Virus record (IMG/VR): IMGVR_UViG_2534681936_000021
Location: 1-37,481 of that record
Length of the DNA: 37,481 nucleotides
Strand: one strand, 5' to 3'
DNA from: a virus
Taxonomy: Duplodnaviria; Heunggongvirae; Uroviricota; Caudoviricetes
How positions within the stretch are numbered: the first letter of the stretch is position 1; each line of letters opens with the position of its first letter. The notes under the pieces are model-generated. The model had not been told where the DNA came from. It saw only the letters and a program-made list of their open reading frames with translations, and ran no database searches. Positions 3,293 through 37,481 of the stretch are shown here, piece by piece. The position numbers and the translations under genes are program-made.

Positions 3293-3378
3293 CAGAGCAA
3301 ATAAAACCACAGATAAAATAAGAAAATGTAAAAACAATCCGCATTAGCGGAGGTATTCGCACACGCCAAGGAGGCGTA

Positions 3379-3582
3379 ATGGCAATTAAGCATTTTCCTG
3401 TCGTTCGTTTTACCTCCAGAGGGCGTGAATACGAAGTCGACGAACGCCTGATTACCACAATCGACAAACACCGTTCGGAAAAGGATGCACACCACATCTA
3501 CCTCACTGACGGCACTTACTTCTGCGCCACCAACGTGGCGCGGGTGAATCTTATCCGACAGGTACAGGAGCCACGCAGATGA
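3379..3582 (+). CDS. early-region hypothetical protein (67 aa)
   Basis: RBS aaggagg upstream; stop overlaps the next start (ATGA). Confidence 0.45.
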   Translation: MAIKHFPVVRFTSRGREYEVDERLITTIDKHRSEKDAHHIYLTDGTYFCATNVARVNLIRQVQEPRR

Positions 3583-3845
3583 CCATTCTGGACTACATCG
3601 CTACCCATCCGGGTTGTAGCGGCGGAGAAATCGCCGCAGCACTGAATACCCCAACCACAGCCATCAATGCTGAGTTACGCCGACTCTGGCGCGGCGGCTT
3701 AGTCATCAGAACAAACCGCAGCACAGGTGGTCGCGCTCGCAAAGCAGGAGGCCAAGCTTCTTACCACGTAAACCCGATGCCGTTCGGGTGTAGCAATCCA
3801 CTTACTCACATGTTTAACCAGCTACTGAAGGAAACCAGAGCATGA
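3579..3845 (+). CDS. early-region protein, possible winged-helix DNA-binding fold (88 aa)
   Basis: Translationally coupled to both neighbours; the N-terminal 60 aa read as a small helix-turn-helix/winged-helix pattern (inference only). Confidence 0.4.
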   Translation: MTILDYIATHPGCSGGEIAAALNTPTTAINAELRRLWRGGLVIRTNRSTGGRARKAGGQASYHVNPMPFGCSNPLTHMFNQLLKETRA

Positions 3846-4141: not shown

Positions 4142-4263
4142 GAAACCAGAACATGCACACACAAAAAAACCGCTTGCCATGCCGCAATCAGTCAGGTTAC
4201 ATTTCCGCTGCACCTCACAAAACGGGTGTCGGGTTTCGCAGCCTGCTGACTACACAAGCGCAC

Positions 4264-4284
4264 AACCGCGCCAGCGGTTTTTTT
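4264..4284 (+). terminator. intrinsic terminator-like hairpin (aaccgc-gcca-gcggtt followed by T7)
   Basis: 6-bp GC stem, 4-nt loop and a run of 7 T; lies within the non-coding stretch after the early ORFs. Confidence 0.5.
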
Positions 4285-4463
4285 GTGCGTACTGTATTGC
4301 CACGTTTTTTTCGCGTCAGAATTATGGCGGGGCGTACGGGGCCGACTTCGGTCGGGCCGGGTTCTTGTGTAGCCGGTACTGCGAACCTCGTACGTCTCGC
4401 CACCCACAGTTTCGCAGCTCTGGATGGTGAGTTTTCACAACTTACTACACAAGGGGCCACACC

Positions 4464-4640
4464 ATGGCAAACCGCAGACTTTCCCGCGCATCACGCGTCG
4501 CGCAAATCATGCACATCAATATGCTGCATGAGCGCAGCCACGCACTATCAAACATTTATTCCGCCTCTGTTTTCAGCTATCTGGCGGATGATCTGCGCGA
4601 GCTTCAACAGCTCATCCAGCAGCAAAACAAACTCCATTAA
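4464..4640 (+). CDS. possible 58-aa helical protein (MANRRLSRASRVAQIMHINMLHERSHAL...), below the ORF-track size cutoff
   Basis: ATG preceded by aagggg about 7 nt upstream; translation reads as amphipathic helix. Confidence 0.35.
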   Translation: MANRRLSRASRVAQIMHINMLHERSHALSNIYSASVFSYLADDLRELQQLIQQQNKLH

Positions 4641-4712
4641 TTCCTGTTCCGGGCCTTTCCTGCACCTTGCGGCGGGAGGCCTTCGCACATCTGTAACAAG
4701 AGGATTGCCGCA

Positions 4713-5078
4713 ATGATTCTCGCCAACGACTTTCTTGAATACCTGCTCAACACAGAACGTGATCTTGCCGCTCGCGTGCGTGATCGTTATGACATGTACC
4801 AGAAATCCCTGCCTGTACCGCAGCTCGCTGACGGAAAGATTGTTATTGATGGTCGCTACATGATTGACAGCCACGAGGGAAATTACAGGCTTTACCGCAT
4901 TGAAGGTGGCACCCCGTCCGTTATTGGCATTTACCAGCGCCCATCCTCTGCAATCGTCGATGTGATTGCCGACAGCATCCGCATCACACATCGCCATGCC
5001 GACACAGAAGACACCGTGCTGGAAATTCAGCGGCTGGCTGCCGTCTGCCGCGACACCCTGAATGGCATGACGAAGTAA
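4713..5078 (+). CDS. hypothetical protein preceding replication gene A (121 aa)
   Basis: RBS aagagga upstream; clean ORF ending 6 nt before the gene A start. Confidence 0.55.
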   Translation: MILANDFLEYLLNTERDLAARVRDRYDMYQKSLPVPQLADGKIVIDGRYMIDSHEGNYRLYRIEGGTPSVIGIYQRPSSAIVDVIADSIRITHRHADTEDTVLEIQRLAAVCRDTLNGMTK

Positions 5079-5084
5079 ATCACT

Positions 5085-7943
5085 ATGACGGCAGAGTACA
5101 TCAGGGACTGGCAACAACCGCGCCACGCAGTGGGGCGTGAAGGAACGGGGATCCCCGTTCCTGAATCCGCGCTTTCCTCCTGGCTGGATGCCTACCGGGC
5201 AGAGAACGAGCGCCGCCAGGAAATGGCTGATGCGGCGTTCTCCGCCACGCCGCTGAGCAACCTGATTAATAAAAGCCTGGACGCACAGGAAAAACAGGAC
5301 AAAACCATCACACTGGCAGGAGACGCCAGAAAACAGGCACGCGGCGCGGTGGATGAAGCCATGGCCTCGCTGCGCCTGCTGCCGTCCTATCTGCGCGATC
5401 CGCTTATTCGCCACCTCTCCTTCCTGCGCAAAAAACAGGAAGCCGATCGCCGGAAAGGCAAAAAGAGCTGGCAGGCTGAACGCTACGCGCGCGGAACCCT
5501 GCGCAAAATATTCGAACGTCTGGACCGCACCGACCACCGCTGGCTGACACCGGGTTATCGCTCCCTTGCCGGACGCGAACGCCTGGATGATTTGCTTTAC
5601 CTGCCGCAGCTCAACCAGCACCAGATACAGACGCTGGCCACCATGACGGCGGCGATGTTCAGCAGCACCTTCGAAAAACTCTGCGATGGCTTTGGCGCGA
5701 CCGATGGCGAACTGACCATGGATGTAACGCTGAAGGCGTATCAGATGCTGGCCCGCATGGCGTTACACCTGCACGCCATGCCGCCACATTACGAAGCTCT
5801 GAACAAGAGCGATCCGGATACGGAACTGTTACCGGGCGCAATCCTTCGCCTGACCTGTGCGGAATGGTGGAAACGCAAACTGTGGCTGTTACGTTGCGAG
5901 TGGCGGGAAGAACAACTCCGCGCCGCCTGTCTGGTTTCCAAAAAAACATCGCCCTATCTGAGCCAGGACGCGTTAAGCGAGTTTCGCGCACAGCGCGAGA
6001 AAACACGCGATTTCCTGAAAAGTTTCATGCTGGAAAACGAAGACGGGTTCACGATTGATCTCGAGACAGTGTATTACGCGGGAGTAAGTAACCCGGTTCA
6101 CCGTAAGGCAGAAATGATGGCCACCATGAAGGGGCTGGAACTTCTGGCCGAAGCCCGTGGCGACAAAGCGGTGTTTCTGACCATCACCTGCCCGTCAAAA
6201 TACCACGCCACAACAGAGAACGGTCATCCGAATCCCAAATGGAACGGGGCCACCATGCGCGACTCCAGCGATTACCTGGTTAACACGTTTTTTGCGGCGG
6301 TCCGCAAGAAACTGAACCGCGACGGCCTGCGCTGGTATGGCATCCGCACAGTGGAGCCTCACCATGACGGCACCGTGCACTGGCATATGATGGTCTTTGC
6401 TCATCCGGAAGAAATCGACACCATTGTGTCCCACACCCGCGATATTGCCATTCAGGAAGATCGTCACGAGCTGGGTGATGATATTACCCCACGCTTTAAG
6501 GCGGAGTACGTCGACGGCTCAAAAGGCACGCCAACCAGCTACATCGCCACCTACATCGGAAAGAACCTGGACAGCCGCGCCGTAGATGGCATCGACCCGA
6601 AAACGGGCAAGCCACGCGTTGACCACGAAACCGGAAAATCGATGGCCGAGAGCGTGGAACGCGCCATCGGCTGGGCGCGCCTTCACCGTGTCCGCCAGTT
6701 CCAGTTCTTTGGTATCCCCTCCCGTCAGGTGTGGCGTGAACTCCGCCGCCTTGCCAGCCAGATGGCACGCAACCCGGAAGGCCCGCAACGGCTGAAGGAT
6801 GACGCAATGGATGCGGTACTCGCTGCCGCTGATGCCGGATGTTTTGCCACCTACATAGAGAAACAGGGCGGCGTACTTGTTCCACGCAAAGACTACCTGA
6901 TTCGCACCGCCTACGACCTCGCAGATGAGCTGAACGATTACGGCGAACAGAGCGTACAGATTTACGGGATCTGGTCACCACTCATCGGGGAATCCTCCCG
7001 TGTGTGCACGCATCCGGATAACTGGAAGCTGGTAAGACGCAAACCGGAAGCGGAAGACAGCGCCCGCGAAAATGGTTTTGACCTTCAGGGCGCCCCTGCC
7101 GCCCCTTGGACTCGTGGCAATAACTGTCCCCGTATACAGGAAACGGGCAACAACGGGACAGAACAGCCGGAAGAACGGCCAGCACCGTGGCCGCAGCTTC
7201 CTGACGGCGTTGACGTGAATGAATGGATGCGCTCACTGAAACGGCACGAACACCGGGCGCTGATGCGTTCGCTGCGTGACAAACAGGCAAAAAACAGCAG
7301 TGATGAAATGCAGAACTGGACACAGAGCCGCAAACAGCCACAGCCTTTGCCTGATAACCACGAGTTACTCGCTAAAGAATGGCGGGAGTCTGCTGAATCT
7401 CTCGGCCTGCATATCGGTGAACAGCAGATGCAGCACCTGTTACGGGGCGGCAGTCTGTACGTTGACGGCAGCATCATTGCACCGCAGGGATTTGAAATTG
7501 TACGCAAACCGGATACCCGCCCGGACAGCCGAATCACGCAGCTCTGGCAACGCCTGAGCCGTAATCACGGCGTAAGCAGCACGGAGATCCGCCATAACCC
7601 GGTCGCCAGCTATCTGGAACAGCTGGGGGCATCAGACCCCGAAGCCGCCACACGCCTGGAATCCACACTTCAGCAGGACCAGAACACCATGAAAACCCCC
7701 GTTACCGTGCTTTCTGACATGCTGTGCGCCATCCGTGACGCAGAGCACGCACAGAGAATCAGTGAAACCACTGAACGCGCCCGCCGCAAAGCAGACCTGC
7801 TGCGGGGTAGCCTGACCAGTGGAAACAAAAAACAGACAGAAACGGGACTCACAAATCCCGTAAATGAGCAAAAACGTGCCGCGATATATGAAGCGCGCAC
7901 AAAACAGGCAAAAGCGGGATTTAAAAATCCTGTAACCGATTAA
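5085..7943 (+). CDS. A: replication initiation endonuclease, P2 gpA family (rolling-circle HUH nickase), 952 aa
   Basis: HUH-like motif EPHHDGTVHWHMMVF and tyrosine motif YIATYIGK in the translation; position after the early genes as in P2. Confidence 0.9.
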   Translation: MTAEYIRDWQQPRHAVGREGTGIPVPESALSSWLDAYRAENERRQEMADAAFSATPLSNLINKSLDAQEKQDKTITLAGDARKQARGAVDEAMASLRLLPSYLRDPLIRHLSFLRKKQEADRRKGKKSWQAERYARGTLRKIFERLDRTDHRWLTPGYRSLAGRERLDDLLYLPQLNQHQIQTLATMTAAMFSSTFEKLCDGFGATDGELTMDVTLKAYQMLARMALHLHAMPPHYEALNKSDPDTELLPGAILRLTCAEWWKRKLWLLRCEWREEQLRAACLVSKKTSPYLSQDALSEFRAQREKTRDFLKSFMLENEDGFTIDLETVYYAGVSNPVHRKAEMMATMKGLELLAEARGDKAVFLTITCPSKYHATTENGHPNPKWNGATMRDSSDYLVNTFFAAVRKKLNRDGLRWYGIRTVEPHHDGTVHWHMMVFAHPEEIDTIVSHTRDIAIQEDRHELGDDITPRFKAEYVDGSKGTPTSYIATYIGKNLDSRAVDGIDPKTGKPRVDHETGKSMAESVERAIGWARLHRVRQFQFFGIPSRQVWRELRRLASQMARNPEGPQRLKDDAMDAVLAAADAGCFATYIEKQGGVLVPRKDYLIRTAYDLADELNDYGEQSVQIYGIWSPLIGESSRVCTHPDNWKLVRRKPEAEDSARENGFDLQGAPAAPWTRGNNCPRIQETGNNGTEQPEERPAPWPQLPDGVDVNEWMRSLKRHEHRALMRSLRDKQAKNSSDEMQNWTQSRKQPQPLPDNHELLAKEWRESAESLGLHIGEQQMQHLLRGGSLYVDGSIIAPQGFEIVRKPDTRPDSRITQLWQRLSRNHGVSSTEIRHNPVASYLEQLGASDPEAATRLESTLQQDQNTMKTPVTVLSDMLCAIRDAEHAQRISETTERARRKADLLRGSLTSGNKKQTETGLTNPVNEQKRAAIYEARTKQAKAGFKNPVTD

Positions 7944-7967
7944 TTATTCAACATAAGGAAAAGCGAC

Positions 7968-8927
7968 ATGAAAATTTGTATCGATGACGGCTCCACCAAC
8001 ATCAAGCTGGCATGGACTGAGAACGGCGAACGCCGCAACGCCATCAGCCCAAACAGCTTCAAGTCGGAATGGTCTGCGCCGTTCGGTGGCACGCAGCCCG
8101 CGAACTACATGCTTGATGGCGTGCGCTATGGTTTTGATCCGGTCAGCGATCGCTTTGTCCAGACGACCGACACGCAATACCAGTACAGCGATGTGAATGT
8201 CATTGCTATTCATCACGCGCTGGTCAAATCAGGCATCACACCACAGGAAGTGGATGTGGTTGTCACCCTGCCACTGAGCGAATATTTCGACACAAACGCA
8301 CAGCCGGACATGGTCAACATCAACCGCAAAAAAGCGAACGTCATGCGCCCGGTGGAGTACCAGAACGGCGAAGCATTCACTATCCGTAACGTACGGGTTA
8401 TGCCTGAATCCATTCCGGCTGGCTTTAAAGCACTGGCTGACATGAGTCCGTTTGAATCCCTGCTGATTGTGGATTTGGGCGGAACCACGCTGGATGTGGC
8501 AAAGGTTCAGGGGCAACTGGCAGGTATCAGCCAGGTGTTTTGCGATCCACACGTAGGCGTTTCTCTGATGGCCGATGCCGTACTGTCGGTGATGGCCACT
8601 AACGGTATGCGCACCAGTCACCACATCGCCAATACCATTATCGAACGTCGCCATAATGAAGCCTGGCTGCGCCAGCACATCCACAATGACGCGCATTACG
8701 CCAGCCTGATGGCGGTTATTCGTGAAAAGGAAGAAACACTGAAACAACGCGTGATCCGCGCGCTGGCGGGTTTTTCGGGTTACGGGCGGGTGATGGTTGT
8801 CGGTGGAGGGGCGGAGATTGTGGCACCCGCTATCCGCGAAGCCTGCGGAGTTAATGCGACTTTCATCGCGGACGGGGTGCCACAGTTTGCTCTGGTTAAT
8901 GGGCTGTACGCAATGGACAAGGAGTAA
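7968..8927 (+). CDS. parM: ParM/StbA-family actin-like ATPase
   Basis: N-terminus MKICIDDGSTNIKLAW plus YSDVNVIAIHHAL, VMPESIPAGF, LIVDLGGTTLDV and VMVVGGGAE closely parallel plasmid R1 ParM as recalled. Confidence 0.85.
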   Translation: MKICIDDGSTNIKLAWTENGERRNAISPNSFKSEWSAPFGGTQPANYMLDGVRYGFDPVSDRFVQTTDTQYQYSDVNVIAIHHALVKSGITPQEVDVVVTLPLSEYFDTNAQPDMVNINRKKANVMRPVEYQNGEAFTIRNVRVMPESIPAGFKALADMSPFESLLIVDLGGTTLDVAKVQGQLAGISQVFCDPHVGVSLMADAVLSVMATNGMRTSHHIANTIIERRHNEAWLRQHIHNDAHYASLMAVIREKEETLKQRVIRALAGFSGYGRVMVVGGGAEIVAPAIREACGVNATFIADGVPQFALVNGLYAMDKE

Positions 8928-8931
8928 ACCA

Positions 8932-9243
8932 ATGACAACACCAACCAGACGGATAAGTTTCTATCTGAAGCCAGCTGCCGTCAAGAACGAAGGAGAAGCA
9001 TGCGCCTGGCTGGACAGCCTTACACCAGAAGCCCGCAAAAGCGGCCAACGCGTGGCTTTTCTGGCCGGGCTGGCACTTCTGAAGACGAATCCGGCAGAGG
9101 CTTACCGACTGGCCGCATGGGCTGATGATGAGATGTTACCTGTGACACAAATCAGCTCAAAAAAGTTTGAAGCACAGTCTGCACCAGTGGCTAAGATAAC
9201 CAGCCAGATGGCTGGGAATATCCGGGCGTTATTTCCTGAGTAA
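8932..9243 (+). CDS. parR: ParR-like small DNA-binding partner (103 aa)
   Basis: RBS aaggag upstream, 4 nt after the parM stop; N-terminus RRISFYLKP and LAGLALL segment resemble R1 ParR as recalled. Confidence 0.6.
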   Translation: MTTPTRRISFYLKPAAVKNEGEACAWLDSLTPEARKSGQRVAFLAGLALLKTNPAEAYRLAAWADDEMLPVTQISSKKFEAQSAPVAKITSQMAGNIRALFPE

Positions 9244-9284
9244 AAGCATCTGCGCGAAAAATGCTCACGTTTATAGAGACAGTA

Positions 9285-9430
9285 TCATTCCATTTGGCAC
9301 ACTTACTTCAATAATCGATCTGTTAAACAAATAGATTGTCTATTATCTATCGATTAAAACGATCAATTATCTTGACAGTAATGTGCCTTTTTGTAAGATC
9401 GTTCGCATTGTGAGCGACAAGATAATTGCG
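9285..9430. repeat. iteron-like repeat cluster (four CGATC/TCGAT cores; inverted repeat caattatcttg / caagataattg)
   Basis: Seen directly in the sequence downstream of parR; candidate centromere or operator. Confidence 0.35.
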
Positions 9431-9448
9431 CGGCATTGTCCATGCAAA

Positions 9449-9478
9449 ACGCCCCAATAGCAGCAACTATTGGGGCGT
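9449..9478. other. perfect 12-bp stem hairpin (acgccccaatag / ctattggggcgt)
   Basis: Perfect inverted repeat with a 6-nt loop, flanked by AAAA on one side. Confidence 0.5.
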
Positions 9479-9505
9479 AAAACTCGGTCGGACTCACTTA
9501 ACCTG

Positions 9506-9590
9506 ATATGCGTGCCTTCCGAAGTAAATCAAAATGTGCGTCGTATATTTTATTGCTTACACGCACCTCTGTAAAGGCACGCATATTTTT
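9506..9590 (+). promoter_or_regulatory. nested palindromes plus T-run immediately upstream of the 89-aa ORF (attenuator/terminator-like leader)
   Basis: 13-bp perfect inverted repeat atatgcgtgcctt / aaggcacgcatat enclosing an inner gtgcgt/acgcac pair, followed by TTTTT and then the RBS. Confidence 0.4.
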
Positions 9591-9607
9591 CCTATGAGGT
9601 AAATAAA

Positions 9608-9877
9608 GTGCGGGCTAAAACAGGTATTTGCAAGAACCCTCATCGTTATAATCCAACATTTCTGTCTCTCCCTGAATATCAAGGACAAGAAGGTCGGCAC
9701 AAATGCGCTGCCTGTGCTTTTGAGCTAGGCATAAAAGATGCGCTTGAAGGACGCGCTATGGCTCAGAATGATTTAGTTTTAGCTAACATTCCGTTTAGCC
9801 AGGCTGGAACTGTAAGGCACAGAGATGCCTATGAAGCATATGTTCGTGGTTGGCGATTAATACACAGCAACAATTGA
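9608..9877 (+). CDS. hypothetical 89-aa protein (GTG start)
   Basis: RBS gaggt 7 nt upstream; ORF followed directly by an intrinsic terminator; no family recognised. Confidence 0.4.
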   Translation: MRAKTGICKNPHRYNPTFLSLPEYQGQEGRHKCAACAFELGIKDALEGRAMAQNDLVLANIPFSQAGTVRHRDAYEAYVRGWRLIHSNN

Positions 9878-9885
9878 TACTTTTG

Positions 9886-9909
9886 AAGCGCCGATAAGGC
9901 GCTTTTTTT
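9886..9909 (+). terminator. intrinsic terminator (aagcgcc-gataa-ggcgctt followed by T7)
   Basis: 7-bp stem, 5-nt loop and T-run 9 nt after the ORF stop. Confidence 0.65.
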
Positions 9910-10438
9910 GTTTGCACGATAGTGCACAAGTTTGCACAATTTTTTTGAACGACTTTTTGTACTTCCGGCCCGCGTGGTGGCTGGATCCGTCAAGGATCCG
10001 TACGTGCACAAAAAAACGCGTTTTTTCTGCGCGCAGGTGACGGGGGAACAGCCCGCGTTTCAGGGGGTAAACAGCATTCCCTGAACGATGTCGCAGCGAC
10101 ACAACGGAATGGCTGTCTTTCTCACGCTGAGCGTGAAAAATACGTGAGGGCTTTTGATTTGATGGGGTGACTGATAAGGCCGTCAAAATCGCACTGAGGC
10201 GACGAGAACATGCAGTCAGCACGGCGGGATTGCGTAAGAGCCTGACCGTCGATGATGACAATAAGCTGGAAGGCGTCGTGAAATTATCTGATTGATACAG
10301 GAGCTGGAGAGTCGGGGCATAAATTTTTTATGCCCCGGCGAAGCAGCAGACAAGCGAAGCGCGTCAGCGATACGGCACCTTGCCGACCATACTTCATAAG
10401 TGCAAAATACGAGCAAAGAAATCAATGGAGGCTGTCTT

Positions 10439-10963
10439 ATGGTCATTAATTACAAGCAGTTAAGAGAAAAACGGGAGCAGGTAAAGGAGAGCTTTCGCCG
10501 CAATGAAGATCTGACCCCGCTTGTACGCCTTGCCCAGGGCATTGTTGATGCTTATGAAATCTCGCTGGAGCTGCCATCACAGACCTGGACAGATAGCGAC
10601 GGTAATCGCCAGCATTACGTTTCATGCGGACTGGAAGCAGCCGAAGGATTTCGCAGAATGCCTTTATCCCAGATCCCTGCCGCTACCCCCAAAGCACGAG
10701 GCAGCAATGATGAGCGAAAACTGACTTTTAGTATTGAAACGGTGGTTGACGACACACCTGGCGAAGTCGCGTTCGTGCACACTCCTGTTTCGATCGCAAT
10801 GTATAACGATGAAATACAGGTTCGCGTTAATAATAATATCGTGCCACTTAAAGAAGGTAATTCACCCTACACCACCGTTTGTGAAGCCATTCAATATTAC
10901 GTTCTCTCTGAAATTGATAATCTCAAGCCTGACGGCACCCAGAAAATGGTTCAACTCTGGTAA
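10439..10963 (+). CDS. hypothetical 174-aa protein, unknown function
   Basis: RBS ggagg 8 nt upstream of the ATG at 10439; ends at the bidirectional terminator shared with Q. Confidence 0.5.
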   Translation: MVINYKQLREKREQVKESFRRNEDLTPLVRLAQGIVDAYEISLELPSQTWTDSDGNRQHYVSCGLEAAEGFRRMPLSQIPAATPKARGSNDERKLTFSIETVVDDTPGEVAFVHTPVSIAMYNDEIQVRVNNNIVPLKEGNSPYTTVCEAIQYYVLSEIDNLKPDGTQKMVQLW

Positions 10964-10994
10964 AAAGGACAGCCCCATCACGGGGCTGTTTTTT
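10964..10994. terminator. bidirectional intrinsic terminator between the 174-aa ORF and Q
   Basis: aaaaa-acagcccc-atcac-ggggctgt-tttttt: 8-bp stem flanked by an A-run and a T-run. Confidence 0.65.
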
Positions 10995-12024
10995 CATCAA
11001 GAAGAGCATAAGAGTTAAAACGGATCACCTCTTCGCCAAGCCAGTCATTGATGTGCTTCATAGCCTCCATGACGGGCATCAGCTCGTTAATTGCGTAAAC
11101 CCGCGCGGCCTTCTCCACATCACCAAACGCACTTTTTTCGCCCGGCATCGCCCCCATCAGTTGCGGCGGAACGCGGTGCGCAGCCAGCACATCATCACGG
11201 GATGCCGCCTTAACATTCATGAACTCATCCTTTGCGGTGATCTGCTGGAACGGCAAAATTTGCACCCCCTCTTTGCCCCCGTTGGGCGCATGGATGAGCA
11301 CGTTTTTAAACGCACCACCACCACGCGCACCCTGTAACGTTTCTTTCAGGGAGTCCATGCTTTCGCGGTTTACCTGCGCTGCACCGATGTAGATGATGCA
11401 CCCGGCGTGGGATCCATTGTCGTAATACAGTTTTCTGAACATGTCCGCCGAATGAGACAGGCTGGCCGAGAGTAATGCGCCAAGATATTCCGGCATGCCG
11501 TAAATTTCCTGGTTAATGTCCGGATTCATCAGGTGGCACACTTTGCCAGGGCGAAACTGAAACGCGTCCTTGCCATCCTGCACATACCACCATGATTCAA
11601 GATCGCTTCCGCGTCGCATGTATTTCGCCAGGGCGTGCCGTAATTTAAGCGGTTCACCGAGCATATTGCTTCGAAGCTCAAGGAATGCGTTACCGAACAC
11701 AAACCAGTCCAGCGCCAGCGCCGAGAAATCCTGCCGGGAAAGCAGCGGGTGCGGAATATAGCAGCCGAGCAATACATTGCGCTTAAAGTAAAGCGCAGAC
11801 TGATGCCAGGACGTTTGCCGGGCAGCTCTTGCCAGACCGTACCAGTCCACCGGGGTTTCATACCACCGCCCGTTATCAGCACAGTACATATTGTCCAGCA
11901 GGTCATGCCCGGTCAGGCGATAAGGACCATCAAATGTGAATGCACTGAGCGATGATTCTTTCCTGAGCGCATCAGCGAGATCAATGCGTGAACTCATGCG
12001 CACTTTTTTATTTTTTCTGCTCAT
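10978..12024 (-). CDS. Q: portal protein, P2 gpQ-like
   Basis: 348 aa; position and size match P2 Q; divergent from O as in P2. Confidence 0.85.
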   Translation of the reverse strand: MSRKNKKVRMSSRIDLADALRKESSLSAFTFDGPYRLTGHDLLDNMYCADNGRWYETPVDWYGLARAARQTSWHQSALYFKRNVLLGCYIPHPLLSRQDFSALALDWFVFGNAFLELRSNMLGEPLKLRHALAKYMRRGSDLESWWYVQDGKDAFQFRPGKVCHLMNPDINQEIYGMPEYLGALLSASLSHSADMFRKLYYDNGSHAGCIIYIGAAQVNRESMDSLKETLQGARGGGAFKNVLIHAPNGGKEGVQILPFQQITAKDEFMNVKAASRDDVLAAHRVPPQLMGAMPGEKSAFGDVEKAARVYAINELMPVMEAMKHINDWLGEEVIRFNSYALLDEKTAP

Positions 12025-32899: not shown

Positions 32900-32922
32900 C
32901 ATCCCTATGTAAGGTTGATTGC

Positions 32923-33945
32923 TTAATACGCATTTAATTTAAATTTGTATTTGCCTTCTATGTAATGGATAAATTCAATTATGCTTTTTTCTATCGCATC
33001 TAATATATGAATATATCCATCCCGATTTAAGGTCCTATCCAACTCAAAGTGATGAACTATCCCATGTCTATATTGTATGATTTCAGAAATTCGATTCTCA
33101 AGAAAATCAACTGATTTTCCAATTCTTTTTTTCTTATAAAGAATCGCTCTCACATCTATATCCAGCCACTCTTTATATGCTTTGTTTAGGTGGGTTAAGT
33201 TTTGAAAAGTGTAATTTCTTGCAATAACACTTTCTATTGAAATATTTCCTTTCTCTATCTCAAGCAGAATATCAAAATCAACTTTTTGCTTATACGATGT
33301 TCTTTTTGCTATTGCGAAAGGATCGTACTTTATAAGTATTTGAAAAGCTCTAGAGAAAAAATATTCAAACATAGCAACCGCAAAAGGTACTAATCCATTA
33401 TATATAACTCTACTGGGATCCATACATTGCATGTAATCAAAGTATTCGGATAAGCCGCCATCTTCCGGTAGGTTTAATTTAATAGAAGGTTCAGGTAAGG
33501 CATGTTTAACAGCGGAAATCTCATGATGGACATGATTAAATATTGAAGAAATGCCACGACTGATCGGACTACTAGAATCCTTCCATAGAGGAGCGTACCT
33601 ATTTTTCCCATAATCACCTATAAGTGTTCCACCAAAAAGACTCCGTGCGCCTTTTAGAACATCATTAAGCATTTTTACATCATGCCAACTAGCGCTATAT
33701 AAATTACGCACATGCAATGCCCATTTATTACCAGATATGTGTAGTTCGTCATTTGAAACAGGATATATATCAGCCGAAACTCCATCTGTAGATTTGAAGT
33801 CCGTATCATCAAACCAAGAGTAATTCAACGTTCCTTGGGGCCATTCCCACAAATGTTTACACCTTTTAAAACCTAAATTTTCAAGGTAATTTTTAAGTTC
33901 GTTTCTAGTTGCTTTTTTAGGGTACAGCGTTATATCTCTTCCCAT
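32923..33945 (-). CDS. hypothetical 340-aa protein in an AT-rich insertion; C-terminal Rx4HH motif (candidate HEPN-like abortive-infection protein)
   Basis: Long clean ORF in markedly AT-rich DNA between D and ogr; motif YRHGIVHHFE near the C-terminus. Confidence 0.6.
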   Translation of the reverse strand: MGRDITLYPKKATRNELKNYLENLGFKRCKHLWEWPQGTLNYSWFDDTDFKSTDGVSADIYPVSNDELHISGNKWALHVRNLYSASWHDVKMLNDVLKGARSLFGGTLIGDYGKNRYAPLWKDSSSPISRGISSIFNHVHHEISAVKHALPEPSIKLNLPEDGGLSEYFDYMQCMDPSRVIYNGLVPFAVAMFEYFFSRAFQILIKYDPFAIAKRTSYKQKVDFDILLEIEKGNISIESVIARNYTFQNLTHLNKAYKEWLDIDVRAILYKKKRIGKSVDFLENRISEIIQYRHGIVHHFELDRTLNRDGYIHILDAIEKSIIEFIHYIEGKYKFKLNAY

Positions 33946-34136
33946 GCTTTATTCACCTGATATACAATATTTTAAATTTTAACTATTATGAACGTATGAA
34001 TTTTCACATTGGATGTATGGAAGTTCAACAACTATTGAAAGTTCAATTTTCACTCTTCGCACAGAGCGAGCTGTTAGTTGGAATTAGGGATCGTACAATC
34101 TAGAATAGCGGCAACACCACGTTAAGGGAGGTCGCT

Positions 34137-34397
34137 ATGTTCCGTTGTCCGCTTTGTGGCGCATCTGCCCGTATCCGCACAAGTCGTCCGGAAAATGATT
34201 CAAACACCGTGCGGCAAAAGTATTACCAGTGTAACAATCTGGAATGCGGCGTATGCTTCTCAACACTGGAAGCTTTCCATAAATTCACATCGAAACACGC
34301 CTCCGGCGTTCACTCTTCAGAAGGTATCCCGTGGCATGAGCTACCAGCTTCACACAGGGGAAACAATCAGATGAGTTTGCCTTTACCTCAGAATTAA
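34137..34397 (+). CDS. ogr: Ogr/Delta-family zinc-finger late transcription activator
   Basis: MFRCPLCGA...CNNLEC zinc-finger pattern typical of P2 Ogr; RBS agggagg upstream. Confidence 0.8.
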   Translation: MFRCPLCGASARIRTSRPENDSNTVRQKYYQCNNLECGVCFSTLEAFHKFTSKHASGVHSSEGIPWHELPASHRGNNQMSLPLPQN

Positions 34398-34588
34398 CAA
34401 GCAGAATTGCCGGAGTAACAAAAAAGCGATAGATTACGCGCGGGTGCCTTTCGGCTGATGGTCGGAGGGAATACCCGAAGGCCAGATGTGGAAAGGCCCC
34501 GGAAAACACTTTTGTTTAACCGAGGCCCTAACCGTCTACCCTAAGCAAGTGAAAGGTTAGCGCCTCTCCGGAAAAGGAGCAAGTGCTA

Positions 34589-34729
34589 TGTCGCAAAAAT
34601 CGCTTACAGCCATCACGTTCTGCGTGACGGTAATCCTCATCATCTGGATGTTGCACGGTTCGCTGTGCGAAATACGGATGAGTTTCTGGGGAGCGGAGTT
34701 TGCGGCGTTCTTACAGTGTAAGCAGTAAG
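34589..34729 (+). CDS. Hok/Gef-family type I toxin (46 aa), below the ORF-track size cutoff
   Basis: MSQKSLTAITFCVTVILIIWMLHGSLCEIR...AEFAAFL: transmembrane helix followed by the Hok-like SLCEIR and E(F/V)AAF motifs; RBS aaggag 8 nt upstream. Confidence 0.6.
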
Positions 34730-34738
34730 GAAACCGCG

Positions 34739-34760
34739 ACGGGGGAGTAATCCCCCGTCA
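34739..34760 (+). other. stable 9-bp hairpin just 3' of the hok-like ORF (gacggggga-gtaa-tcccccgtc)
   Basis: Perfect inverted repeat 10 nt after the stop; consistent with a hok mRNA 3' fold. Confidence 0.5.
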
Positions 34761-34989
34761 ATCGGTTGCCAGGGTAAGGTCGATAAGGCACCCTATCTCA
34801 CGGCTCTAAATGCAAAAATTCCATGAAACTGTGGGATTTTTGCATCACTACTGATACAGATCTGACCTTCTTTATGTCTCACTCTATACCAGCTAATCAA
34901 TTGACACTTATCAATAAAAAAAAATCTGATAAAATCAAAATGTTTTGTAACAAATATCAACTCGTATTGATCCAAAGGAGGCGGATTAC

Positions 34990-35322
34990 ATGGCATTAAT
35001 CAAATGTCCTGAATGCCAGAAAGAGGTGAGCGATTCAGCATTGTATTGCCCTGCTTGCGGTAAACAAATAAAAAAACTTAAGCGTTCATTTTTTGGAAAG
35101 CTCATTAAGTGGATTTTTATATTATTTAATATTTTTATGATCTATACGCTTTTAGTTGGACTGGGAGGCACTAGTGAAATAATAAATAATGCTACATCCG
35201 ATGCCGAAAAAGCCGGTGCAGTTATTGGTACAGGCTTAGGTTTAATTACCATTGGAAGTTTATGGGTTATTGGCGATATCATTATCGGAATTTTAGTGTT
35301 TCTTACTAAACCAAAAGGATAA
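34990..35322 (+). CDS. zinc-ribbon membrane protein (110 aa)
   Basis: N-terminal CPEC...CPAC zinc ribbon followed by two hydrophobic helices; AT-rich context. Confidence 0.5.
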   Translation: MALIKCPECQKEVSDSALYCPACGKQIKKLKRSFFGKLIKWIFILFNIFMIYTLLVGLGGTSEIINNATSDAEKAGAVIGTGLGLITIGSLWVIGDIIIGILVFLTKPKG

Positions 35323-35326
35323 CAAA

Positions 35327-36218
35327 ATGAAAAATATAATTTTTCTATAGGTGCATCATTTATATCAATTGGTGTACTGCCTGTTCACGCAGCAACTGAA
35401 CATAATAACTTCAATGCAGTACTCCAGTGCCGAGCAATAGAAAATAATAAAGACAGACTTTCTTGTTACGATAAGTCAATACAACCGACTCGAACGAAAG
35501 TTGCTGAAAAATTCGAAAGCAGAGATCAATGCCCTGATGAGAAAGATGATGACAGACGTTTATCTTGTTATGATCGTTTTTTTCTCCAACATTTACTCCA
35601 TCTGTAAACTCAAAATCTAAAACGGAAAAGCCAGTAACAACAGAGGCTCAGCAACCAAATCTTTCTGAGATATCTAAATGCCGAGCAGAAAATGATAAAG
35701 AAGCCAGACTAAACTGCTACGATAAACTATTCCCACAGGATAAAGCTGTTCAAGCTGAATCAAAATTAGAGAAAGCCACAGATGTAGGAAAATGGCACAC
35801 ATCCATTACTACATCGCCAATTGATGATTCGAAAAATGTAATTTTATCGTTAGAAAGTGATGATTATATCAGAACTCCATTTGGAGAAGCGGTTACTCCT
35901 ACTCTGTTTATAGCTTGCCGAGAAAAGAAAACCGAAGTATTTCTTGGTTGGGATGTATATTTAGGCCTTGAACAAACCAGCATGCTTTATCGTCTTGATA
36001 AACAGAAAGCAGTTGAGCGAAACTGGCTAGTATCTACAGATACAAAGGCTGTTTTTTATAAAGGTAATGACATTGATTTCATCCGAAAACTAGCCAACTC
36101 AAACAAAATGTATACAAAAATAACTCCTTATAATGAGAGCCCTGTAAGTGCAACTTTCAATTTAAACGGCCTGTCAAACGCGCTAAAACCACTTCAAGCT
36201 GCTTGTAACTGGAAATAG
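35327..36218 (+). pseudogene. frameshifted gene for a secreted protein with three Cys-x9-10-Cys-Tyr-Asp repeats
   Basis: Signal-peptide-like start (MKNIIF...); frame breaks at T-runs near 35340 and 35577-35583; an ATG-less open frame continues to 36218. Confidence 0.45.
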
Positions 36219-36245
36219 CATAAATCATGTGGCTTAGCCACAATC

Positions 36246-36289
36246 ACAGATAACACAAAGCCCGTGGAAACGGGCTTTGTGTTATCTGT
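36246..36289. other. 19-bp perfect inverted repeat with 6-nt loop (acagataacacaaagcccg / cgggctttgtgttatctgt)
   Basis: Seen directly; lies between the upstream pseudogene and the candidate attR. Confidence 0.55.
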
Positions 36290-36299
36290 AACTCGAAAA

Positions 36300-36319
36300 T
36301 GTGGTCACTACGTGGACAC
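36300..36319. repeat. candidate attR core (tgtggtcactacgtggacac)
   Basis: 17 of 20 identity in direct orientation with 10-29 at the int end. Confidence 0.35.
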
Positions 36320-36485
36320 GTGCTGATATAAATCCTTTTATATCAATAAATTAAATCATCATTTTTTTCATCAACAAGGATTTTCACGTTTGTGTTACCT
36401 GTATGAGACGAGAGTTAACCGGACAAGTGTGCCATAATCTCGCGGCCAGGCATACTTGCGAAGATTTCAGGTATAAGGATACGTA

Positions 36486-37481
36486 ATGATACAACCTATT
36501 TCCGGCCCTCCTCCTGGGCAACCACCAGGTCAGGGAGATAACCTGCCGTCTGGCGCGGGCAATCAGCCTTTATCCAGTCAGCAACGTACTTCGCTGGAAA
36601 GCTTAATGACGAAAGTGACCTCACTGACGCAACAGCAAAGAGCAGAACTGTGGGCGGGTATCAGGCACGATATTGGTCTGTCGGGAGATTCACCGCTGCT
36701 TTCGCGTCACTTCCCTGCCGCTGAGCATAATCTGGCGCAACGTCTGCTGGCCGCGCAAAAAAGCCATTCTGCCCGCCAGCTTTTAGCGCAATTAGGGGAG
36801 TATTTACGTCTGGGGAATAATCGTCAGGCGGTCACGGATTATATCCGTCATAACTTTGGTCAGACGCCGCTGAATCAGCTCTCACCGGAGCAATTAAAAA
36901 CCATTCTCACCCTGTTGCAGGAAGGGAAGATGGTTATTCCGCAACCGCAGCAGCGCGAGGCGACCGATCGTCCTCTATTACCGGCGGAGCACAATGCGCT
37001 CAAACAGCTGGTGACCAAACTTGCGGCGGCAACGGGGGAGCCCAGCAAACAGATCTGGCAATCGATGCTGGAACTTTCCGGGGTGAAAGATGGCGAGTTA
37101 ATTCCAGCGAAACTGTTTAACCATCTGGTGACCTGGCTGCAGGCGCGTCAGACGCTAAGCCAGCAAAATACGCCGACGCTGGAATCACTACAAATGACGC
37201 TAAAACAACCTTTAGATGCCAGTGAACTGGCGGCGTTATCGGCATATATCCAGCAAAAATATGGCCTTTCTGCGCAATCATCGCTTTCTTCTGCCCAGGC
37301 CGAGGATATTCTTAATCAGCTTTATCAACGGCGGGTTAAAGGGATTGATCCGCGTGATATGCAACCGCTGCTTAATCCTTTTCCACCGATGATGGACACG
37401 TTGCAAAATATGGCAACGCGTCCCGCGCTGTGGATACTGTTAGTCGCGATTATCCTGATGCTGGTCTGGCTGGTTCGTTAA
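36486..37481 (+). CDS. flk: Flk-like flagellar regulator with C-terminal membrane anchor (host gene)
   Basis: Pro/Gln-rich N-terminus MIQPISGPPPGQPPGQ and C-terminal hydrophobic anchor ALWILLVAIILMLVWLVR; recognised from memory of enterobacterial Flk. Confidence 0.55.
   Translation: MIQPISGPPPGQPPGQGDNLPSGAGNQPLSSQQRTSLESLMTKVTSLTQQQRAELWAGIRHDIGLSGDSPLLSRHFPAAEHNLAQRLLAAQKSHSARQLLAQLGEYLRLGNNRQAVTDYIRHNFGQTPLNQLSPEQLKTILTLLQEGKMVIPQPQQREATDRPLLPAEHNALKQLVTKLAAATGEPSKQIWQSMLELSGVKDGELIPAKLFNHLVTWLQARQTLSQQNTPTLESLQMTLKQPLDASELAALSAYIQQKYGLSAQSSLSSAQAEDILNQLYQRRVKGIDPRDMQPLLNPFPPMMDTLQNMATRPALWILLVAIILMLVWLVR

Follow-up and report, generated by a model that had tools for sequence, protein, structure and literature searches.

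The gpA-gpQ interval of an integrated P88-like prophage, probably a cos-proximal diversity hotspot: a mosaic of five independent units, among them a cassette for a small putative zinc protein

This analysis concerns a stretch of phage DNA of 37,481 nucleotides (IMG/VR record IMGVR_UViG_2534681936_000021; the window, in what follows) and, within it, the interval from position 7944 to position 10977, which lies between the gene for the replication endonuclease gpA and the gene for the portal protein gpQ (Table 1). The window represents a P88-like prophage (genus Xuanwuvirus) of the P2 family in its integrated state. The interval contains parM and parR, encoding an actin-like segregation ATPase and its adaptor, an open reading frame (ORF) of 89 amino acids (89-aa), a second ORF of 174 aa, and dense palindromic DNA. 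It had originally been predicted, from the letters of the DNA, to be a single undescribed accessory module serving defence, exclusion, or maintenance. Our results demonstrate instead that the interval is a mosaic of five independent units, namely, a partition cassette, the cassette of the 89-aa protein, a probable cos region, a moron encoding the 174-aa protein, and the portal end. We consider it probable, with good though not complete confidence, that the whole represents the cos-proximal gpA-gpQ diversity hotspot of this prophage.

Table 1. Features of the gpA-gpQ interval and its borders, in window coordinates
Feature	Position	Strand	Details
Replication endonuclease gpA	5085-7943	+	Left edge of interval; Phage_GPA, E 4e-131
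Two 38-nt direct repeats, 72 bp apart	7826-7935	.	Each with palindrome CGGGA-N8-TCCCG (7843-7860, 7915-7932)
parM, actin-like segregation ATPase	7968-8927	+	StbA_N, E 5.6e-82 (273.8 bits); ParM C-terminal domain, E 3.3e-67 (225.9 bits)
parR, adaptor	8932-9243	+	Plasmid_stab_B, 82 bits (cutoff 25); phrog_2515
Variable slot 1	9244-9897	+	Swapped in other phages; here the whole 89-aa cassette (promoter, leader, ORF, terminator)
Control region of 89-aa gene	9311-9428	+	Imperfect 26-nt inverted repeat with GATC in each arm (9317, 9361)
Perfect 11-nt inverted repeat	9364-9374 / 9418-9428		Brackets the promoter
Sigma-70-like promoter	TTGACA (9372), 16 nt, TAAGAT (9399)	+	GATC at 9397 overlaps the -10 element
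Structured leader and candidate cis-antisense RNA	9440-9586	-	12-bp hairpin 9449-9478, then TTTTG on the - strand
Perfect 13-nt inverted repeat	9506-9518 / 9574-9586
Promoter-like site	TTTACA (9575), 17 nt, TAAAAT (9547)	-
89-aa protein WP_001390707	9608-9877	+	Putative CHCC zinc unit (C8, H12, C33, C36), one degenerate unit, two SQxGxxRH motifs
Intrinsic terminator of 89-aa gene	9885-9905	+	8-bp stem with 5 G-C pairs, then T-run
Conserved cos-proximal region	9898-10367	.	TGCAC repeats 9910-9943; record break 9957/9958; two GGATCC 9982-9999; palindromes and further hairpins
Perfect 16-bp palindrome AAAAAACGCGTTTTTT	10011-10026
Perfect 10-bp palindrome CTGCGCGCAG	10027-10036
Slot 2, present or absent	10368-11002	+	Here the 174-aa cassette; otherwise 21 bp
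Weak promoter of 174-aa gene	TTGCCG (10379), 17 nt, CAAAAT (10407)	+	Read by eye
174-aa protein WP_000236495	10439-10963	+	Alpha+beta orphan; GGAGG Shine-Dalgarno sequence 6 nt upstream
Bidirectional terminator hairpin	10969-10989	.	Common to the 174-aa gene (+) and the portal gene (-); + strand stem, then TTTTTT
Portal protein gpQ	10978-12024	-	Right edge of interval; phrog_68, E 5e-153; Phage_portal

The interval is identical (100%) to sequence in the chromosomes of Escherichia coli O55:H7 DEC5A and FDAARGOS_946, and of 5426 complete E. coli genomes, 1439 contain parts of it; about a quarter of these complete genomes carry the prophage. Sixteen phage records match it, including P88, P88_4B11 (P884B11), and Citrobacter phage PhiSM, and a tyrosine integrase is encoded at the left end of the window. 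All four predicted genes are present. The ParM-like ATPase and its ParR-like partner were confirmed by matches to StbA_N, PDB entry 1mwk, and Plasmid_stab_B, and both small ORFs are annotated as hypothetical proteins by the Prokaryotic Genome Annotation Pipeline (PGAP) in the identical E. coli chromosomes. The products of these two ORFs match PHROGs (3941 and 5091) that have no known function, and profile and structure searches gave no family or only generic folds, in agreement with the prediction that neither could be assigned a function.

The predicted correspondence with the old/tin position also held. The interval is syntenic with P2 orf91-tin-old-cos, lies between gpA and the portal gene as expected for a member of the P2-like gpA-gpQ (old/tin) hotspot, with a presumed position of cos, and differs among relatives. 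It shares with the P2 locus its position, hypervariability, and cos proximity, whereas its cargo genes are co-oriented with gpA (P2 old and tin are convergent with it) and the hotspot resolves into two slots that flank the cos region. Comparison with P88, 520873, and P88_4B11 fixed the borders of the units, which are sharp: the shared sequence runs to the parR stop codon (9243), and positions 9898 to 10367 are likewise shared. For a census of the slots, 80 IMG/VR loci were retrieved with ParM, and the 45 that reach the next anchor were scored. Slot 1 held 20 different contents in these 45 loci, the alternatives including ClpX-type zinc-finger proteins and small ORFs; slot 2 was occupied in 7 and, at 21 bp, empty in the other 38. 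Gene content among near-identical phages therefore varies in both slots, and parMR is invariant. The 89-aa cassette is found with an empty slot 2 in two of the loci (L026 and L038) and in phage 520873, and the 174-aa cassette is paired with five other slot-1 contents. Among the 5426 complete E. coli genomes, 166 carry the 89-aa cassette, 397 the 174-aa cassette, and 161 both; since the two are distributed independently elsewhere, the co-occurrence in 161 of 166 genomes is best explained by clonal descent.

The density of palindromic DNA that had been noticed at the outset is real. From 9244 to 10438 there are 13 perfect 9-nt inverted-repeat seeds against 0.27 expected, a number reached in 0 of 300 shuffles, and 13 terminator-like sites against 3.8 ± 2.0 expected. 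Most of these palindromes are not cargo, however, as had been supposed; they belong largely to a conserved cos-proximal region, to all appearances the packaging region and as such an essential cis element. Positions 9898 to 10367 are 92 to 95% identical in 16 matching records of related P2-like phages of E. coli and Citrobacter, and 75% identity persists over the core (9907 to 10057) in an Enterobacter P2-like phage. The linear record of P88_4B11 ends in ...GAACGAATTTT and starts with TGCCCTTCCAGCCCGCGTGG, which places the break at window position 9957/9958, and in P2 cos adjoins Q. On the basis of the conserved block, the break in the P88_4B11 record, and the position of cos beside Q in P2, we propose that 9898 to 10367 probably contains cos, with a putative cut at the break; the palindrome-rich centre of the interval would then be the conserved packaging (cos) region. 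Two points weigh against this assignment: the position of cos is drawn from a single record break together with conservation, and a blastn-short comparison of the P2 cos junction with positions 9850 to 11000 gave no significant similarity (words at chance level).

A match at 13 out of 19 positions between GGTGACGGGGGAACAGCCC and the cohesive end of P2, seen by eye, was dropped as unsupported, and contig ends were discarded as evidence for cos, only four IMG/VR loci ending within the conserved block and at scattered positions. Two GGATCC sites, each with a GATC, are separated by 11 bp and found some 25 to 40 bp rightward of the presumed break at cos. The pac site of phage P1 is Dam-regulated, and the Dam sites close to the presumed cos of the window recall it.

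The locus as such has been described before, contrary to the original prediction. It was analysed in 18,150 E. coli loci by Rousset et al. 2022 (PMC9122126), in which hotspot and partition genes are catalogued, and Table S5 of that study lists arrangements of StbA, Plasmid_stab_B, and hypothetical proteins with WP_000211267 (the ParR of the window), WP_001390707 (the 89-aa protein), and WP_000236495 (the 174-aa protein). With hotspot and partition genes already published, the hotspot itself is of limited novelty. What is new here is the 89-aa family, its predicted fold without a PDB match, its nuclease fusions, its apparent link to GATC restriction-modification, and its conserved phage cassette.

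The 174-aa gene belongs to a narrow family (E. coli, Salmonella, and Trabulsiella), and its cassette replaces the last 8 codons of the portal gene. All of the contexts examined are P2-like gpA-gpQ hotspots, including ones that lack parMR. The model of the protein (predicted local distance difference test [pLDDT] score of 80) begins with two helices, continues with an antiparallel sheet, and ends in a further helix, with generic matches only, and no match was found in PADLOC, Pfam, or NCBIfam. The ratio of nonsynonymous to synonymous polymorphism (pN/pS) is 0.097, indicating purifying selection. We regard the protein as probably a lysogen-expressed accessory (exclusion-type) gene product, a role in exclusion or defence being favoured because of the prior that comes from this hotspot. 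Slot 2 carries a promoter-ORF-terminator moron for an orphan protein, and the portal gene closes the interval.

This raises the possibility that one or both of the small ORFs are new anti-phage defence or superinfection-exclusion genes. The selection acting on the 174-aa gene is in keeping with such a role, as is the fact that both ORFs are variable morons with expression signals of their own. We nevertheless hold the explanation only as a tentative one, because neither ORF has a PADLOC, Pfam, or NCBIfam match or an enzymatic or effector domain and because StbA-containing arrangements are absent from the table of tested systems in PMC9122126. The prediction of a defence module found no counterpart in PADLOC, in which no part of the interval matches a known defence family; PADLOC-DB returned no match at E values up to 1 for ParM, ParR, the 89-aa protein, or the 174-aa protein.

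The partition cassette is of a different nature. Both domain scores of ParM are far above the cutoffs; the protein matches R1 ParM (PDB 1mwk) over residues 2 to 316 (E 7e-91; 55% identical), and its nucleotide-binding motifs for phosphate and adenosine (DDGSTN, DLGGTT, and GGGAE) are intact. In ParR alleles, residues 4 to 63, predicted to form a ribbon-helix-helix by analogy with known ParR proteins, and the C-terminal NIxxLFPE tip are conserved, and the linker is variable. The pair thus has the ParM ATPase and the downstream ParR adaptor of a type II ParMRC system. It resembles ParMRC (stbAB) of R1 and R100 in the full-length similarity and intact ATPase motifs of ParM, in the gene order parM-parR, in the Pfam family of ParR, and in the NIxxLFP(D/E) tip shared with an IncF ParR, but it differs in that it sits in an integrating phage directly downstream of gpA, and in that a pair of palindromes separated by 72 bp stands in place of the array of about ten 11-bp iterons. 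ParR occurs in at least two allelic types, 48 to 55% identical and differing in the linker, with partner ParMs that are 96% identical (loci L147 and L148, positions 3365 to 3676); across these types the N-terminal 60 residues and the C-terminal tip are fixed.

Although parMR had been counted among the variable cargo, it is fixed in the P88-like lineage and under strong purifying selection. Every one of the 14 phage records whose gpA is of the P88 type carries it (gpA identity of 83% or more, with no other gpA above 43%), and no close ParM was found in any other phage of the collection, the ParM of phage D6 being 47.5% identical. Plasmid ParMs are at most 52% identical to that of the window, which therefore represents a separate clade. 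The pN/pS of parM is 0.058 over 72 alleles, versus a value of 0.028 in the portal gene. Of the four genes once grouped together, parM and parR are thus conserved genes of the lineage.

The position of the cassette suggests that parMR is cotranscribed with gpA. parM starts 24 bp after gpA on the same strand, with no gpA terminator detected between the two genes and no separate parM promoter found by our scans, from which coexpression of parMR with the early replication operon follows as the likely arrangement. Upstream of parM lie the two direct repeats with their palindromes, the second about 33 bp from the gene. In the window, a 1-nt deletion in an A-run (five A residues rather than six; 7870 to 7943) adds 17 codons to gpA, so that the extended gene reads through the second palindrome before it ends. 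The gpA of most relatives ends at a TGA near 7892 (alignment of upstream regions, 57 distinct sequences), and for this reason the second palindrome is intergenic in most of them. The 80 relatives yield 57 distinct upstream sequences, and across these both palindromes are conserved, even where they are noncoding. These repeats (7826 to 7935) are our candidate for the ParR operator and centromere (parC). Downstream of parR nothing is conserved, since slot 1 begins directly after the gene. A test of covariation between ParR and parC was set aside: the palindromes are unchanged in phages with divergent ParR, and this is uninformative because the divergent alleles differ in the linker only.

Several points weigh against this view of the cassette. 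That no separate parM promoter was detected is one; another is that the candidate parC is noncanonical, with two palindromes in place of arrays of about ten iterons. The parC of an IncF plasmid shows T-rich repeats with a periodicity of roughly 10 bp, and no iteron array of that kind was found upstream of parM. Alternatively, the two palindromes may represent terminators on the - strand or a repeat belonging to the gpA tail. If the assignment is right, the conserved pair of palindromes near the start of parM would serve as binding sites for ParR, and phage circles would be pushed apart by filaments of ParM. We infer that the system would act on the extrachromosomal circle, after infection or induction, and not while the phage is integrated.

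Rousset et al. 2022 (PMC9122126) suggested a different purpose, namely that parMR lets these phages persist as low-copy plasmid prophages. A complete and selected partition cassette is what such a lifestyle would call for, and one complete E. coli assembly (NZ_CP148288.1) does list a whole P88-like genome as a circular "plasmid" of 34,461 bp (34.5 kb) that encodes an integrase, cox, gpA, parMR, the structural genes, Hok/Gef, and a Com regulator with a DNA methyltransferase. That record, however, may stem from the sequencing of a phage genome that was excised or replicating at the time, and in the complete E. coli genomes the interval is chromosomal at 1707 of 1709 places. One or two plasmid places against 1707 chromosomal ones imply that stable plasmid lysogeny is not the rule. 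The integrase has been kept as well, and P88 and PhiSM are both described in the literature as active temperate phages, induced or released from chromosomal prophages. We therefore consider the plasmid-prophage explanation unlikely. An actin-type partition system that is selected and fixed in a phage that is almost always integrated is at odds with it, and points to a role in segregating the DNA of a P2-type phage while it is extrachromosomal. A literature search found no functional study of parMR in P88-like (Xuanwuvirus) phages.

The product of slot 1 is a member of a family of some 1600 uncharacterised proteins. For the 89-aa protein itself, Pfam, NCBIfam, PADLOC, and the PDB gave no sequence match, and its predicted model (pLDDT 90) has no fold match in the PDB. 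An exhaustive HMMER search yielded 172 cluster representatives of the family, and a profile search yielded 1598 homologues, mostly of 84 to 89 aa. Residues C8, H12, C33, and C36 and two Q-x4-RH motifs are invariant or nearly so in the family alignment. A roughly 45-aa unit (C-x3-H...SQGGxGRHKCxxCAYxxG) is seen in the longer relatives, frequently as tandem copies; among 61 of these relatives, NOV_C, a PD-(D/E)xK nuclease domain, occurs in 25, HNH or HNH_2 in 14, DndB in 3, WYL in 1, and HEPN in 1. We presume that the 89-aa domain is the DNA-targeting module of the NOV_C and HNH nucleases. The gene product gp20 of P88, considered as a diverged homologue, was rejected on translation. PGAP leaves the 89-aa ORF unannotated in about half of 25 listed genomes that carry the cassette (99 to 100% identity), so that the gene is undercounted in protein-based surveys.

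In 9 of 10 cellular contexts, the stand-alone gene has a DNA methyltransferase (MethyltransfD12 and/or N6_N4_Mtase) no more than about three genes away, and the gap to its neighbour is often 19 to 20 bp; 7 of these 9 contexts also contain DpnII or a DUF6996/6997/7226 protein. A second scan of viral contigs gave 96 loci with 89-aa homologues, 50 of them 41 to 63% identical. There the gene occupies accessory or moron positions beside CI-type repressors, UmuD/UmuC, antiterminator Q, GtrA, and similar genes. The 320 nt upstream of the gene in phage loci contain 112 GATC sites against 24.7 expected, and at least three such sites are found in 28 of 33 phage loci, at stereotyped distances.

The control region of the cassette is likewise conserved. 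In comparisons with alleles whose proteins are 59 to 63% identical, the repeat block, the -35 element, the -10 element with its GATC, the hairpin, a TGTAAAG box, and the Shine-Dalgarno sequence are conserved above the coding sequence. Other phages keep the leader hairpin with different stem sequences; this was read sequence by sequence, RNAalifold on a MAFFT alignment of the leaders having misaligned the hairpins and given an uninformative consensus. The leader of about 200 nt is strongly structured (z, -3.9), and in this respect the attenuator-like leader of the original prediction was correct; it is not a classical terminator-type attenuator, because its main hairpin (9449 to 9478) has no U-run on the + strand. 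A predicted - strand RNA of about 100 nt, antisense to the leader, is also structured (z, -3.75). Rfam gave nothing at gathering score in the interval or in 15 related leaders, and hairpin matches to ctRNA_pGA1 and sar (E 0.3 to 0.4) were rejected as generic stems. Slot 1 carries a self-contained cassette for the 89-aa putative zinc protein, whose expression would be gated by the GATC sites of the promoter and by a structured leader or antisense RNA.

From the fusions, the neighbours, and the promoter content, all features of sequence, we infer that the 89-aa protein may be a small factor that binds DNA and is connected with GATC methylation; the roles that we find most likely are those of a regulator, a restriction-alleviation factor, or an antirestriction factor. 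Taken together, these data can be read as pointing to a new, structurally unmatched CHCC-zinc DNA-binding domain that would read GATC sites or their methylation, target NOV_C and HNH nucleases, and assist cassettes of the Dam/DpnII type. The orphan phage copies, under a promoter gated by GATC and accompanied by a covarying hairpin in the leader and possibly an antisense RNA, would sense or manipulate GATC methylation or restriction in the host, for example by restriction alleviation. As a whole this is a doubtful proposal. If the methylation link were true, it would mean a new DNA-reader domain and a new phage route into the Dam/DpnII world.

There are reasons for caution. The 10 cellular contexts were chosen among the top hits of the profile and probably come from related low-GC bacteria; a methyltransferase neighbour was seen in only 2 of 34 distinct phage loci; the corresponding region of the window has only three GATC sites, which alone are not significant; and no GATC sites were found upstream of the cellular homologues. 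The cellular genes lack such operators because they are cotranscribed.

Two groups of known systems bear on the proposal. The distribution of the family resembles those of C-protein controllers and of restriction-alleviation factors. Like the C proteins and like lambda Ral and Rac Lar, the 89-aa family is small, occurs in restriction-modification cassettes, and has orphan copies in phages. It differs from them in lacking a helix-turn-helix or any sequence similarity and in having a different, unmatched fold, and one cassette of the family already has a separate HTH_3 controller alongside. The protein is thus not a recognisable C protein, having no helix-turn-helix, no other match in Pfam or NCBIfam, and no PDB-matched fold, and the genomic association with restriction-modification cassettes is the only feature that the two have in common. 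The second group is that of Dam-sensitive promoters (IS10 transposase pIN, Mu mom, pap, and agn43). As in these, a GATC overlaps the -10 element of the 89-aa gene and another lies just upstream of the -35 element, and the sites are clustered and positionally conserved across phages; in contrast to these, dependence on methylation is putative here, and the cluster in the window is by itself not statistically significant.

The proteins of about 420 to 425 aa with DUF6996, DUF6997, and DUF7226 always follow a Dam-class (D12) methyltransferase (L009, L013, L016, L020, and L021; for example, L009:3704-4981). They sit in the position of the restriction endonuclease and have no sequence relative in the PDB; probably they represent an uncharacterised family of restriction enzymes. 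A literature search found no functional study of WP_001390707 or WP_000236495 and none on DUF6996/6997/7226.

The layout of the cassette also invites comparison with type I toxin-antitoxin pairs such as SymE/SymR and RalR/RalA, which likewise combine a small prophage gene, a long structured leader, and a candidate cis-antisense RNA but bear no sequence relation to the 89-aa gene. On this explanation, the 89-aa gene and the - strand leader RNA would form a type I toxin-antitoxin or abortive-infection pair in which a toxic DNA-binding protein is held off by the antisense RNA. We find it distinctly unlikely. The protein has neither a nuclease nor a membrane domain, most relatives have a hairpin without a clean U-run on either strand, and the cellular homologues are ordinary members of restriction-modification operons, with gaps of 19 to 20 bp and without such a leader. 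In favour of the explanation are the promoter-like site and terminator-like hairpin on the - strand inside the leader, the conservation of the layout with its TGTAAAG box in diverse phages, and the moron positions of a gene whose domain is otherwise joined to nucleases.

That the whole 3-kb interval is one undescribed accessory module of four cooperating genes is very improbable and largely refuted by the independent distributions. The four genes do share a strand and an interval, and the complete arrangement is found in the 161 genomes noted above, but the pieces are set apart by boundaries, promoters, and terminators of their own, the conserved region that probably contains cos stands between the two small ORFs, and each cassette occurs without the other, the 174-aa cassette even in hotspots without parMR.

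Some features outside the interval may be recorded. In the early region, an isrK Hfq-binding RNA (61.9 bits; 4210 to 4284) and a C4 antisense RNA (83.2 bits; 4320 to 4407) lie in tandem on the + strand, both above the Rfam gathering thresholds and just upstream of an Ash-family ORF (4153 to 4716). A second low-GC island (32900 to 36500; GC 0.32 to 0.38) follows the gpD region and looks like another cargo or defence hotspot of the prophage. It contains an ORF of 340 aa (32923 to 33945, - strand) with a weak HEPN_RiboL-PSP match (E 1e-4, below the cutoff) and a zinc-ribbon ORF of 110 aa (34990 to 35322). Between 31562 and 32802, adjacent ORFs of 290 and 123 aa match Phage_GPD at profile positions 48 to 207 and 218 to 304, respectively. 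Tail gene D therefore appears to be split, which suggests that this copy of the prophage may be defective.

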